64,000 bases of DNA from an uncultured Gammaproteobacteria bacterium (GCA_964411255.1 CAYPKD010000006.1:67097-131096); one strand, 5' to 3'. Numbered from the stretch's first letter, positions 22,370 to 28,463 are shown. Notes: generated by a model not told the origin, from the letters alone. Translations and numbers: made by a program.

Positions 22370-22392
22370 TTTTAGAAAACTGATATCCAGGT

Positions 22393-22421
22393 TTGACAAA
22401 ACTTAAATAATATGCTATTTT
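22393..22421 (+). promoter_or_regulatory. Sigma70-like promoter (TTGACA-17-TATTTT).
   Basis: The hexamers and spacing were read directly from the sequence. Confidence 0.45.
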
Positions 22422-22461
22422 ATTATGATATTACTGAAACTAACATTTAATAGGAGTTATC

Positions 22462-22842
22462 ATGTTTTGGATGGCAGAAGGCGACTGGGGAGGCCAGATC
22501 TACTTTACTGTAGATCAGGATATGGTAAAAATTTCAAACAAACAACTCGTAGAGCTGGTTCGAGAACTGGACACCTATGCCTGGGATTGCAATGAGGGTC
22601 AAGGCTGGGATATCCGTCTGATGGAAATCATAAAAGAAGAATTCGACGGCATTATCCCAGGCGGCATGGGTGGCGGACGATATATTCCTGGTGAACTCTG
22701 GGTGCATAAGGCATTTGACCCTATCAAAGAGCATATCCTCCAAGTTCTTCAGGGAAAACTGGACAAACTGTCTGATAAGATCAATATCCCGCCTACTGAA
22801 CTGGAAAAATGGCAAACCGCAATGAGGCTGCTAGAAGAATAA
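22462..22842 (+). CDS. Small cytoplasmic protein; paralog of the 22931 gene.
   Basis: The two share QIYFTVD..LVKIS and YIPG.(L/I)W(V/I)H motifs. The product is 126 aa. Confidence 0.55.
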   Translation: MFWMAEGDWGGQIYFTVDQDMVKISNKQLVELVRELDTYAWDCNEGQGWDIRLMEIIKEEFDGIIPGGMGGGRYIPGELWVHKAFDPIKEHILQVLQGKLDKLSDKINIPPTELEKWQTAMRLLEE

Positions 22843-22847
22843 CTTTC

Positions 22848-22877
22848 AAACCTGCTGAAAAATTTAGCAGGTTTTTT
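22848..22877 (+). terminator. Intrinsic terminator T2 (aaacctgctg-aaaaattt-agcaggttt + T).
   Basis: A hairpin is followed by a T6 run. Confidence 0.6.
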
Positions 22878-22930
22878 GATTAAATAAAATAAGTATGATA
22901 ATCTTTTTTAAGTAAGACCTAGGAGGAATC

Positions 22931-23296
22931 ATGGGCGTCTGGATTGTAAAAAGCAGTGATGAAAGTCAAATTTATTTCACTGTTGACGAATCATTAGTAA
23001 AAATTTCTGAAGAAAAACTGCTTGAGCTGGCTCAAGACATTGATCAAATGGCAATGCCAACAACACCTGACAAAAACGTAAATCTTTTTAGGATTAAATC
23101 TGATAATCCAGCAACTATTGAATGGGTGCTTAATAAAAGTCAGGCTAAGGGCCAATATATTCCAGGACAAATTTGGATTCATCCGGATTTACTGGTTATA
23201 AAAAGCAGGATAATAGCGGTCGTTCAGGGCACAAAACGTAAAGTGACGCGACAATTGATTATTCCAAAAAAAGTTAGAGAAATAAAAATTGATTAA
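22931..23296 (+). CDS. Small cytoplasmic protein; paralog of the 22462 gene.
   Basis: A GGAGGAA RBS is present. The product is 121 aa. Confidence 0.55.
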   Translation: MGVWIVKSSDESQIYFTVDESLVKISEEKLLELAQDIDQMAMPTTPDKNVNLFRIKSDNPATIEWVLNKSQAKGQYIPGQIWIHPDLLVIKSRIIAVVQGTKRKVTRQLIIPKKVREIKID

Positions 23297-23303
23297 AAAT
23301 AAT

Positions 23304-23332
23304 TCACCTACCAAACACTTTGGTAGGTTTTT
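23304..23332 (+). terminator. Intrinsic terminator T3 (cacctaccaaa-cac-tttggtaggt + T6).
   Basis: A hairpin is followed by a T run. It is followed by ttaattcgaaa..gcgag, which is also present after T5. Confidence 0.6.
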
Positions 23333-23372
23333 TAATTCGAAAAGCTAGGTAGGAAATGCGAGATACGACTTA

Positions 23373-23401
23373 TTTGACAAAATTATCCCATTCTGCTATA
23401 A
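23373..23401 (+). promoter_or_regulatory. Consensus sigma70 promoter (TTGACA-17-TATAAT).
   Basis: TTGACA lies at 23373-23378 and TATAAT at 23396-23401. Both hexamers are perfect and the spacer is 17 nt. Confidence 0.6.
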
Positions 23402-25283: not shown

Positions 25284-25289
25284 AACTAA

Positions 25290-25318
25290 TCTGCCAAACA
25301 ATTTGGTGGGTTTTTTTT
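25290..25318 (+). terminator. Intrinsic terminator T5 (ctgccaaa-caa-tttggtgg + T8).
   Basis: A hairpin with G-U pairs is followed by a T run. The flank ttaattcgaaatgcgag matches that after T3. Confidence 0.55.
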
Positions 25319-25391
25319 AATTCGAAATGCGAGAGGCAAAAGGTGAAAATTGCATATTTTACTAAATTTAGACAAAAAATACAAAAACAAT

Positions 25392-25420
25392 TTGACAAAT
25401 CACTATATAAATGCTAAAAT
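25392..25420 (+). promoter_or_regulatory. Sigma70 promoter (TTGACA-17-TAAAAT).
   Basis: The hexamers and spacing were read directly from the sequence. Confidence 0.5.
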
Positions 25421-25465
25421 TACAATCCATAACTACACTGAAAAAGGCAAAACAGGAGCAGGAAA

Positions 25466-26314
25466 ATGCGAGAACAACGAAACAAAGCAAGTAATGTTAT
25501 TATTTATGTTGGACTAATCGGAATAATAGTCGAGTTGATTATGCTTCTGGTTGTGATTCGTACACATTACTCTTCAACAGATTTTTCAATAGAAAATCAA
25601 AATTTCTTTACAAGGATTTTTTCAACAGAAAACCCAGAAATAAAACGAGAAAAACAGGCTGGCGAATCAACATACAATGGCAGAGACGATGACGGTGACG
25701 GCTTCGTTGACGAAGACTATGTCTGTGATCCTTCAAAAGACGTCAAAATGCTTTGCTTTGCCGGCGATGATGAAAAAATTGGAACCATGAGCTGCAATGA
25801 CAACGGTGTTGGTTTTACCAAATGTGAAACCAACTGCACTATTGGTGATGCTATGAACATACGCATGATGCATAGTTATCCCATGGGATCTCCTCTGTAC
25901 GTAGAATATGATCATACATACCGCTGCGTCAGGGCAGGCAGACTGGGTGAAGGCAAAACCCAATGGAAAACTGCTCAGCTGAAACAAGTTCCTTTGGAAG
26001 AAACGTATAGTCCTGCCGCCCTTATGAGGATGGGATTGTCCAAATCAGATTACAGGAAGCATTATGACAATCCACAAGAAGGACGAGTGGCACTTGCTGA
26101 AAATCAGTATCTAGGAGAATGCACTATTAGCGAGACCCGCAACTGCGGCACAAATCTCGGCCAATGCGTCAAAGGCACACAAATTTGCCAAGACAATGGC
26201 CGAGGCCAAGGCATCTGGTCAAAATGCGGTGGTGAATTTGTAGGAAGAAGCATCGAGATCTGCCTTGACGGTCTGGACAACGATTGCAACGGCCAAATCG
26301 ATGAAGGCTGTTAG
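25466..26314 (+). CDS. TM-anchored extracytoplasmic protein with MopE-type repeats.
   Basis: There is an N-terminal TM helix. Repeats are GRDDDGDGFVDEDYVCDP and ICLDGLDNDCNGQIDEGC. The product is 282 aa. Confidence 0.65.
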   Translation: MREQRNKASNVIIYVGLIGIIVELIMLLVVIRTHYSSTDFSIENQNFFTRIFSTENPEIKREKQAGESTYNGRDDDGDGFVDEDYVCDPSKDVKMLCFAGDDEKIGTMSCNDNGVGFTKCETNCTIGDAMNIRMMHSYPMGSPLYVEYDHTYRCVRAGRLGEGKTQWKTAQLKQVPLEETYSPAALMRMGLSKSDYRKHYDNPQEGRVALAENQYLGECTISETRNCGTNLGQCVKGTQICQDNGRGQGIWSKCGGEFVGRSIEICLDGLDNDCNGQIDEGC

Positions 26315-26324
26315 CAGTTGACAA

Positions 26325-26351
26325 CCTGCCAAACAATTTGGTGGGTTTTTT
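26325..26351 (+). terminator. Intrinsic terminator T6 (cctgccaaa-caa-tttggtggg + T6).
   Basis: Its sequence is nearly identical to T5. Confidence 0.55.
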
Positions 26352-26362
26352 GATAAAAAAAT

Positions 26363-26428
26363 AACAAACTAAAGTTTGTCAATCCTTATTTAAAAATTAG
26401 AACCAGGTCTGACAAACTTTAGTTTGTT
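26363..26428 (-). terminator. Perfect 19-bp inverted repeat (aacaaactaaagtttgtca / tgacaaactttagtttgtt) with a 28-nt loop and a T7 run on the minus strand; likely the ligA terminator.
   Basis: The right arm overlaps the ligA stop. On the minus strand a U-tract follows the stem. It is convergent with T6. Confidence 0.5.
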
Positions 26429-28463
26429 ACTTGAGCAACCTCAAAAATTCCTTTTCTCCAACTATCTTAACGCCAAGCTCCTTGGCCTTTTTAAATTTAG
26501 AGCCAGGACTCTCCCCTGCCACAACCAAATCTGTTGATTTTGAAACTGAGCTTGAAATATCTCCGCCTAAATTTCGTACTGTGACCTTAGCTTCATCACG
26601 CGACATTGATTCCAAGCTTCCAGTCAAAACAACTGTCTTACCAGTTAACGCTGACTTTTTCAATCTGGCTGGCGGAACTAATTCCACTCCCCGCGCTTCA
26701 AGTTCAAGCAGTTGTTCAACCTCTTCTTTATCATTAAAAAAGTCATAAAGACTCTGAGCAACTTTTTCCCCAACCCCTTCTAACTCCTTTAATTCTTCTA
26801 ACTTTTTTAACTTAATCTTTTTAATCAATTTTGAAATCTTTTTTTCTGAAAATTGCCTGGCCAATACATTTCCCATTTCCTCTCCAACAAATCTGATTCC
26901 CAAAGAAAATAAAAACTTTGCTTCAGATACTTTTTTACTGTCTTCAATTGCTTTGACCAAATTATCAGCTGATTTTTCTGCAAATCGTTCTAAAGGCTGA
27001 AGATCGCCAACAGTTAAATCAAAAAAGTCAGCAGACTTGCTTATCAAACCTTCATTCATTAATTGCTCAATAATTTTTGGGCCAAGCCCTTCAATGTCAA
27101 ATCCTTTTCTGGACACAAAATGAACCAAACTTTCAAATTCTTTGGCAAAACATTTTTCATTTGTACAATATGTTGCTGCTTCTCCTTTTCTTCTCTCAAC
27201 TTTTGCATTGCAAATCGGACATTTGGCTGGCATTTGAAACTTTTTTTCTTTTCCAGTTCTCATTTTTGGCAGCACATCCACAACTTCAGGAATAACATCA
27301 CCAGCTTTTATAACAATGGCTGTATCGCCAATTCGAATATCTTTTTCTTTAATAAAATCTTCATTATGCAAAGTAGCCCGGCTGACTGTTGATCCTGCCA
27401 GTTTAACTGGCCGCAAATGAGCAACTGGAGTTAAAGCGCCAGTTCTGCCAACTTGAATATCAATATTTTCAACCATTGTTGTCGCTTCCTCTGCTGGAAA
27501 TTTATAGGCAATGGCCCAGCGAGCAAGCTTGGCAGTTCGTCCTAATTTTTCCTGATAAGCAATTAAATTTACTTTAGCCACAATACCATCAATTTCATAT
27601 GGCAATTTTTCCCGCAATTGATGAATTTTTTCAGCGTATTTAATGACAGCTTTTATATTTTTGCAAAAAGTATAGTGCGGCTCAACCTTAAAACCTAATT
27701 TTTTCAAATAGTCCATTGTTTCTTTTTGAGTTTTTCTTTTTGGCCCTTGAACAACAGCATACATGAACACATCAAGTTCACGTTCAGCTGCCACTTTTGG
27801 ATCGAGCTGGCGCACTGATCCTGCTGCTGCATTTCGAGGATTGGCAAAAGGCTTGTCCAGCTTTTTATTCAACTTTTCAAAAACTTTAATTGGCATAAAA
27901 ACTTCGCCGCCGACTTCAATGTCAACCGGTTCTTTTAATTTTAATGGCAGGCTTTTTATGGTTCTAACTGTATGAGTAACATCTTCGCCAAATGTTGCAT
28001 CGCCCCGGGTAACACCTTTATCCAAAACACCTTTTTTGTAAAGAAAAGACATGTTTAAGCCATCAATTTTAGTTTCGCAAGTGTATTCTAAATCTTTACT
28101 TTCAGGCATTTTCAAAAATCTTTTTACTCTTTTATCAAATTCTTCCAGATCTTCAAAAGAAAAAACATCATCAAATGAATATTTTTTTACTGCATGCTTA
28201 ACTTTTTTGAATTTTTCCAATGCTTTGCCGCCAACTCGTTGAGTGGGTGAGTCAGTGGTAATAAATTCCGGAAACTGTTTTTCGAGTTTTTCAAGCTCAT
28301 CTTTTAATGAATCGCGAACTGCGTCAGAGACAATTGGCCGATCCAAAACATAATACGCATAGTCAATGCCGCGCATTTGTTTTTTTATTGCTTCAATTCG
28401 TTGTTTAGCTTGTTTTTTATCCATAATATTTGGCCTGGACACCTGCCTTCGCAGGTGAGACAC
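26427..28463 (-). CDS. ligA: NAD-dependent DNA ligase.
   Basis: The KxDG adenylation motif (KIDGLNMSF) is present, followed by a Zn-finger ([24 protein letters not shown]) and a C-terminal BRCT-like region. The likely true start is MDKKQAKQ at 28424. Confidence 0.9.

Follow-up and report, generated by a model that had tools for sequence, protein, structure and literature searches.

Clustered single-gene units are familiar from the vlp, vsp, vsa and vpma loci of Mycoplasma, a reduced-genome, host-dependent bacterium in which lipoprotein genes combine conserved promoter regions with variable bodies. Terminators built from repeated sequences are known as well: paired DNA-uptake sequences in Neisseria and Haemophilus, or derivatives of miniature inverted-repeat transposable elements (MITEs), give many terminators of one genome the same stem. 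In lambdoid prophages, a moron is a single gene with its own sigma70-type promoter and factor-independent terminator (PMC3594210). Integron attC sites, in turn, carry R″ (RYYYAAC) and R′ (GTTRRRY) cores, L boxes and extrahelical bases (PMC12901181). Here, we analyzed a 64,000-nt stretch of DNA deposited under an uncultured Gammaproteobacteria bacterium (GCA_964411255.1, CAYPKD010000006.1:67097-131096; hereafter the window), which belongs to an uncultured bacterium of the Patescibacteria, or candidate phyla radiation (CPR). At 22380–26430, it holds five single-gene units, A to E, each ending in a terminator of one hairpin family. The organization that the first-pass annotation described there is real, and as such it is an ordinary bacterial gene arrangement; promoter-bearing cassettes that are permuted between lineages at a private terminator family are modestly novel relative to the cassette and moron themes.

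No homology to the Mycoplasma loci was found, and neither a phase-variable homopolymer in a promoter spacer nor an invertible element or dedicated recombinase was found here. The common stem recalls the DNA-uptake- or MITE-derived terminators, but this family is confined to the cassette boundaries of one 4-kb locus within the 64 kb. As in phage morons, a unit is a single gene with its own promoter and terminator, can be added between other genes, and may deviate in base composition (here A and E); unlike morons, these units lie outside a phage or prophage, stand five in a row, have one terminator family and are permuted between lineages. Integron arrays, above all those of sedentary chromosomal integrons, in which attC sites are near-identical (PMC13108822, PMC12901181), resemble the row in their same-strand one-gene cassettes, 3′ imperfect hairpins and variable order and content. 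They differ in that integron cassettes are promoter-less, whereas those described here carry promoters, have neither IntI nor attC boxes, and end in a canonical short terminator with a T-tract at which crossover positions vary.

Consensus scanning placed promoters upstream of A, C, D and E, each with TTGACA and a 17-nt spacer and 10 to 12 of 12 hexamer positions matched (Table 1). TG stands one base 5′ of the –10 hexamer in all four, which assigns them to the extended –10 class (TTGACA, 17-nt spacer, TGn, TAnnnT). At a loose scan threshold the region was not enriched (40 sites versus 31 expected), and we therefore counted a strict pattern, TTGACA-N14-TG-N followed by at least 4/6 of TATAAT, against a null of 2000 dinucleotide shuffles. 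This pattern occurs four times on the + strand of 22380–26430, where 0.005 were expected and none of the 2000 shuffles reached four, and the two strands of the entire 64-kb window together hold only five such sites. The four promoters are thus a distinct, unusually strong set. They lie 34–41 nt (A, C and E) or ~94 nt (D) upstream of start codons with good Shine-Dalgarno sequences. Their motifs are conserved amid drifting flanks: that of C in five lineages, where ATTTGACA and TG.TATA.T are invariant while 12 nt upstream vary, that of D in three lineages, and those of A and E in a sister lineage represented by contig L007. The promoter coordinates of the first-pass annotation were correct to within 1 nt, and its statement that each gene has its own promoter stood for these four units but not for the 22931 gene, B. 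The only candidate for B matches 7 of 12 positions, has a –35 hexamer that overlaps the T-tract of the preceding terminator, and was missed by the scan at ≥9/12; its TGnTAA..T is kept in L007 and in two further contigs, L145 and L095. The long leader of D contains the block ACTGTTATATGCTGmTTGTTT, common to three lineages (the window, L007 and L095, in the last at about 740–900), and is a possible cis-regulatory RNA.

Six intrinsic terminators, one each for the gene at 20361 farther upstream and for A, B, C, D and E, begin 2–9 nt 3′ of the stop codon. Each combines a G+C-rich stem-loop with a U-tract just 3′ of the stop on the coding strand; the stems comprise 10–13 pairs, with folding free energies (dG) of –9.4 to –18.5 kcal/mol, shuffle z-scores of –2.9 to –6.2 and tracts of T6–T8. 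With at most three mismatches allowed, the stem motif CCTGCCAAACA-N-TTTGGCAGG has only four copies in the 64 kb, at 23307, 24485, 25290 and 26325, versus 0 expected. As had been proposed, the terminators therefore form a family, with the full stem in four of the six and only the outer CCTGC...GCAGG and the T-tract in those after 20361 and 22462; judged from their sequence, the units look monocistronic. The terminators are 76–97% alike, those elsewhere in the window have unrelated stems, and across 149 fetched loci the hairpin family was found at cassette boundaries only. Tandem G.U pairs are present in T(D) and T(E) (CCTGCC versus GGTGGG), whose + strand RNA folds much better than the – strand (for T(D), dG –9.4 versus –2.4 kcal/mol). 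All 14 terminators from three lineages fold (dG –9.4 to –18 kcal/mol), and their arms show compensatory changes: CCTGCC/GGCAGG, CCTACC/GGTAGG, CCTGCT/AGCAGG and GCTTGCT/AGTAAGC. Strand-biased G.U stability and compensatory arms are what an RNA terminator predicts, and what a DNA operator would not.

The cassettes stand in different orders in close relatives. The window reads g20361-A-B-C-D-E-ligA, and the sister lineage, known from three independent assemblies (L007, L008 and L009; ligA 93% identical in protein and 87% in DNA), reads g20361-A-D-C-E-B-ligA. Four independent contigs reproduce the window order with identical hairpin spacing, and within each lineage the assemblies from ENA, JGI and Logan are consistent, which makes assembly errors an unlikely source of the difference. 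Next to ligA, the window carries E, L007 and L145 carry B, and L150 and L153 carry C; T(C) of L153 runs straight into the long ligA terminator hairpin that also closes the row in the window. In L095, the D promoter and leader come after B, and in a more distant metagenome-assembled genome (MAG), gyrA is followed by a truncated C-like gene whose promoter is of the same type.

Alignment of the window with L007 by blastn gave six blocks (Table 1). Each block has a terminator at both ends, all five internal boundaries coincide with a terminator, and neighbouring colinear blocks overlap by 30–67 bp exactly there. The T-tract, spacer, promoter and leader move with the downstream gene, the stop-codon flank and left hairpin arm with the upstream gene. 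In L007, A is followed by a chimeric hairpin (AACCTGCTAAgcaaTTTGGCAGG + T7) whose left arm is A-type and whose C-type right arm is the one standing before D in the window; the hairpin includes a T.G wobble. The point of crossover varies from junction to junction: it falls within the loop at A|D and within the T-tract at E|B, C|E and C|ligA.

Table 1 Features of the five-unit row and blastn blocks relating it to sister contig L007
Feature	Window position	Strand	L007 position	Description
T(g)	22336..22372	+		Terminator of upstream MopE lipoprotein gene 20361-22331; hairpin 22336-22366; outer stem CCTGCT.../...GGCAGG, T6; dG –18.5, z –6.2
Unit A promoter	22393..22421	+	3915-3943	TTGACA-17-TATTTT, TGn; 10/12; identical hexamers in L007
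Gene A	22462..22842	+		126 aa, cytoplasmic; canonical family member; motifs GDWGGQIY, W.CN.G.G, GGMGGG, W.H; GC3 0.47
T(A)	22848..22880	+		Hairpin 22848-22874; AAACCTGCTGAA aaa TTTAGCAGGTTT, then T6
Unit B weak candidate promoter	22876..22904	+		TTGATT(22876)-17-TAATCT(22899), TG at 22896; 7/12
Gene B	22931..23296	+		121 aa; degenerate A paralog without GDWGG, GGMGGG; GC3 0.27
T(B)	23306..23334	+		Hairpin 23306-23328; CCTACCAAA cac TTTGGTAGG, then T6
Spacer with copy of E-cassette left edge	23329..23365	+		ttaattcgaaa[agctaggtagga]aatgcgag; read as scar of earlier junction
Unit C promoter	23374..23402	+		TTGACA-17-TATAAT, TGn; 12/12
Gene C	23450..24481	+		343 aa lipoprotein (LIFSAC); N-terminal MopE repeat, hypervariable beta-sandwich centre, conserved C-terminus
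T(C)	24484..24513	+		Hairpin 24484-24506; CCTGCCAAA cat TTTGGCAGG, then T7
Unit D promoter	24543..24571	+		TTGACA-17-TAATAT, TGn; 10/12
Unit D leader	24578..24671	+	4467-4560	~94 nt; imperfect hairpin 24591-24642
Gene D	24672..25283	+		203 aa lipoprotein (FSFSAC); two MopE-like cores DDDCDCEIDE, DADCDGEIDE; mechanical open reading frame from TTG 24609
T(D)	25288..25320	+		Hairpin 25288-25312; AATCTGCCAAA caa TTTGGTGGGTT, then T8; three G.U pairs
Left edge of E cassette	25313..25391	+		ttttttaattcgaaatgcgagaggcaaaaggtgaaaattgc...; after T(C), not T(D), in sister lineage
Unit E promoter	25392..25420	+		TTGACA-17-TAAAAT, TGn; 11/12
Gene E	25466..26314	+		282 aa; N-terminal membrane anchor, C-terminal MopE repeat; GC3 0.40
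T(E)	26323..26353	+		Hairpin 26323-26347; AACCTGCCAAA caa TTTGGTGGGTT, then T6
ligA terminator	26359..26432	–		Long AT-rich hairpin; dG –32.1, z –7.9; convergent; right island border
blastn block 1	21090-22896		2616-4419	
blastn block 2	22849-23335		7429-7914	
blastn block 3	23306-23797		5169-5667	
blastn block 4	24284-24511		6190-6423	
blastn block 5	24473-25351		4363-5235	
blastn block 6	25285-26364		6390-7472	
GC3, G+C content at third codon positions.

From these motifs and their conservation, the permutation of the cassettes and the breakpoints within terminators, we infer that the row is probably made up of autonomous, moron-like cassettes that belong to a variable island of surface-protein genes and have been reshuffled through recombination at the repeated terminator. 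A cassette would comprise an extended –10 sigma70-type promoter (TTTGACAAA-N-TGnTAnnnT), a leader of ~35–95 nt with a strong Shine-Dalgarno sequence, one open reading frame (ORF) and a Rho-independent terminator that would block read-through, so that each unit could be expressed independently. The ~30-nt hairpin with its T-tract, present as direct repeats at all boundaries, would also offer a homology patch for excision, insertion or exchange, whether by Campbell-type loop-out and re-insertion or by unequal crossing-over. A patch at every boundary would yield lineages with the same cassettes in different orders and numbers. Two translocations, of B to the end and a swap of C and D, would suffice to interconvert the two orders; in each move, loop-out between two direct hairpin copies would be followed by re-insertion at a third, leaving a hairpin on each side of the cassette. 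The likely outcome would be a diversified cell surface of the episymbiont. Variable crossover points, together with a left border of C that lies off the hairpin, favour homology-driven or illegitimate events over a fixed-site enzyme.

Several points weigh against this interpretation. B lacks a good promoter and could be served by read-through from its upstream neighbour, and promoter use and terminator efficiency are predictions, so the starts and stops of transcription are putative. The left border of C lies elsewhere than at a terminator, the spacers 5′ of its –35 hexamer being unrelated between the window and L007; hence not every event used the hairpin. The full five-cassette order comes from two lineages only, the other contigs being short and covering one junction each, and the direction, number and age of the events cannot be read from these data. 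The homology patch is short (~25–45 bp, 76–97% alike) and would be a poor RecA substrate. The role in surface variation, finally, is drawn from signal peptides, a generic beta-sandwich model with a mean predicted local distance difference test (pLDDT) score of 56.6, and weak Foldseek matches.

If cassette reshuffling holds, a short boundary terminator marks where expression units were swapped, gained or lost among close uncultured relatives. If it proves general, it would be a simple, integrase-free route to modular genome change, by which reduced-genome episymbionts could vary their surface proteins and terminators would gain a second, evolutionary role. The region also gives phylogenetically footprinted promoters and terminators for a phylum with almost no transcription data; our literature search for CPR transcription-unit studies found none.

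Genes transcribed singly between a sigma70 promoter and an intrinsic terminator are common, and other consensus promoters and terminators are present elsewhere in the window. The row might accordingly be an ordinary chromosomal cluster whose terminators came to resemble one another by local gene conversion or convergent selection, the rearrangements being unrelated to them. We regard this as unlikely, since all five internal boundaries between the window and L007 fall at terminators, one hairpin is chimeric, the C|ligA junction of L153 is also at a terminator, and the hairpin family is found at these boundaries only.

It is quite unlikely, though conceivable, that the terminator hairpin is the attachment site of an undescribed cassette-mobilizing system of CPR bacteria, its recombinase encoded elsewhere or acting in trans, which would both capture and reorder promoter-bearing surface cassettes at a ligA-side hotspot; a 73-nt double-hairpin element repeated upstream in the island (see below) would then be a second class of site. 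More generally, the hairpins could be sites of a site-specific recombinase encoded elsewhere and the units integron-like, promoter-bearing cassettes. Cassettes bounded by a conserved imperfect hairpin at the gene 3′ end and permuted between lineages would fit this idea, as would the 73-nt element, whose stem ACCCAAC...GTTGGGT matches the attC core consensus RYYYAAC/GTTRRRY (PMC12901181), and a distant A-family gene of Paenibacillus pabuli that adjoins a tyrosine recombinase. We nevertheless find it very doubtful. Neither an integrase nor a transposase was found among the ORFs of at least 100 aa across the 64-kb window; the terminator hairpins read AACCTGCCAAAcaaTTTGGTGGGTTTTTT, span only ~25 nt and have neither RYYYAAC/GTTRRRY cores nor L boxes; crossover points vary and the left border of C lies elsewhere; and other 73-nt copies read AAT/ATT rather than AAC/GTT. 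Integron cassettes proper were rejected as a candidate: IntI and Phage_integrase are missing from the same ORF set, attC cores are missing, and four of the five cassettes have a near-consensus promoter.

The first-pass annotation had instead proposed that whole promoter–gene–terminator units arose by tandem duplication, with the two small proteins as immunity or accessory partners of the three secreted ones. Its observations recur here in part: A and B are paralogs (31% identity, E 1e-20), the terminators are alike, MopE cores are common to C, D and E, and both copies of the flank ttaattcgaaa..(a)atgcgag noted after the third and fifth terminators are present, at 23329-23365 and 25313-25335, the first with a 12–13-nt insertion. 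The conclusion drawn from them now appears highly improbable. The terminators are 76–97% alike between genes that are unrelated or, for A and B, 31% identical, those of A and B resemble the terminators of unrelated genes, and GC3 differs between units (0.47 in A, 0.27 in B). The flank does not mark a duplication, as it is the left edge of the E cassette and travels with E in the sister lineage, where it follows T(C); the copy after T(B) is most simply a scar left when C was inserted at an earlier junction. An immunity module finds no support in gene order, A and B lying upstream rather than downstream of the secreted genes and B standing apart from A in L007. Neither a toxin nor an immunity family was matched: A and B have no match in Pfam, NCBIfam, PHROGs or PADLOC, and no toxin domain was found in C, D or E. 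A MopE core was found within 6 kb of an A-family gene in none of 49 other genomes, using a motif that detects all nine cores in the window.

The least probable reading is a prophage or phage accessory remnant, that is, a true moron cluster, for although a promoter and terminator per unit and some deviant G+C are moron traits (PMC3594210) and a T4 Rnl1-type RNA ligase and a Cro/C1-type helix-turn-helix (HTH) protein are encoded in the island, the latter has no structural, replication or integrase genes, its PHROGs matches are limited to the ligase, the HTH protein and one weak tail-fibre hit, IMG/VR contains neither the terminator motif nor the A family, and tblastn with the A protein found nothing in INPHARED phages or PLSDB plasmids.

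The cytoplasmic proteins A and B represent a widespread, undescribed and unannotated protein family. A word-indexed search found only five relatives, and an exhaustive profile search recovered 423 cluster representatives at E ≤ 1e-3 and 186 at E ≤ 1e-10. The family domain spans ~100 aa, with nearly invariant GDWGGQ.Y, D, W.CN, G, GGMGGG and W.H, and occurs in CPR bacteria, DPANN archaea, Paenibacillus, Brevibacillus, Priestia, Minicystis, Planctomycetes and others. When 69 members were compared with Pfam, the sole matches were domains fused to the family domain in single proteins. The AlphaFold2 model of A is confident (pLDDT 86); it had no Foldseek match in the PDB or BFVD, and a profile search of PDB sequences returned noise only. 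Tandem fusions of canonical and degenerate family copies exist (P0015 and P0088), suggesting that A and B may pair with each other. In Paenibacillus pabuli (L115, 5800-7636), a distant A-family gene ends a run of small, same-strand, function-unassigned genes and is directly followed by the tyrosine recombinase (Phage_integrase, E 7e-40); around a distant A homolog in a Paceibacterota MAG (L011), no comparable cassette pattern was found.

Judging from signals and cores in their sequences, C, D and E appear to be secreted or anchored Cys-rich MopE-type proteins, as first annotated. C matches Pfam PF11617 (Cu-binding_MopE) at 34.1 bits (E 3e-8), E reaches 26.4 bits, just under the 27-bit gathering threshold, and D has no Pfam match and only two DxDCDxxxDE cores. 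The start of D at 24609 was revised: ATG 24672, with a GGGAG Shine-Dalgarno sequence and the lipoprotein signal MQNVYLTLILFSFSAC, is most likely the start. Among C orthologs, the N- and C-terminal parts are kept and the centre is strongly variable; the model gives this centre a beta-sandwich (pLDDT 70–95 there), with generic, weak Foldseek matches. Apart from the known sister contig, scanning metagenomes with protein E yielded only unrelated MopE proteins.

The five-unit row is the right end of a + strand island (~11.5–26.4 kb) between gatC (11096-11422, –) and ligA (26427-28463, –), both flanks being – strand housekeeping genes. The window has ~35% G+C, and its housekeeping genes (uvrD, queH, gatA/gatC, ligA, GAPDH, rseP, clp, T4SS-pilin-like proteins, radA and recG) are a typical Patescibacteria set, with Paceibacterota, Gracilibacteria and 'Patescibacteria group' MAGs as the nearest named relatives of its proteins. 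The same DNA is found on metagenome contigs of up to ~365 kb (ENA, JGI, NCBI and Logan). The left part of the island has a G+C content of 0.43–0.49, versus 0.32–0.37 in the flanks, and GC3 forms a mosaic across 11798-26314: 0.63 in the gene at 11798, 0.55 at 13049, 0.56 at 16299, 0.50 in the RNA ligase gene and 0.47 at 20361. This mosaic suggests acquisitions that differ in age or source. Within the row, B, C and D (0.26–0.27) are close to host genes (0.23–0.27), and the values of A and E, which are unlike them, point to different histories of the units. A tRNA or transfer-messenger RNA (tmRNA) serving as integration site of the island was not found, ARAGORN and Rfam detecting only three tRNAs in the window, at 62.7–63.7 kb.

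Further left in the island, the 73-nt double-hairpin element stands between genes on the + strand at 13522, 14303, 14653, 15528, 16218 (half), 18027, 19860 and 20246. Its first stem is ACCCAAC-N12-GTTGGGT, changed to AAT/ATT by compensatory substitution in other copies, and it has no T-tract. The sister lineage has an extra gene of 73–78 aa between two copies where the window has one, which points to cassette insertions and deletions at this element too. The RNA ligase gene (18595-19863, +) is disrupted in the sister lineage, which is without 18603-19514 and keeps the C-terminal 134 aa as an ORF. A perfect TTGACA-17-TATAAT lies at 19936-19964 (+), with its –10 hexamer overlapping the ATG (19963) of the Cro/C1-type HTH gene; this arrangement may reflect an unusual true start or transcript, or an autoregulated promoter.

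A 371-nt non-coding stretch at 12305-12675 (+), 3′ of a DUF6847/DIP1984-like gene, ends in an intrinsic terminator (12640-12662 + T7) and is a candidate new structured RNA. Its minimum free energy is –133.3 kcal/mol, versus –96.2 ± 5.4 in shuffles (z –6.9); no tmRNA and no Rfam family was found in it beyond a chance-level match (E 0.016) on the opposite strand. At 12922-13011 (+), directly before a Cys-rich gene at 13049, a near-consensus promoter (TTGACT-17-TATAAT with TG) is followed ~40 nt later by a terminator (12989-13011), which would give a tiny transcript or a leader attenuator. On the other side of the row, a GIY-YIG endonuclease gene lies just downstream of ligA in sister lineages (L007 10023-10334; L150 3367-3645) and is absent there in the window. 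The housekeeping part of the window includes a single ORF of 2676 aa (37249-45279, –).

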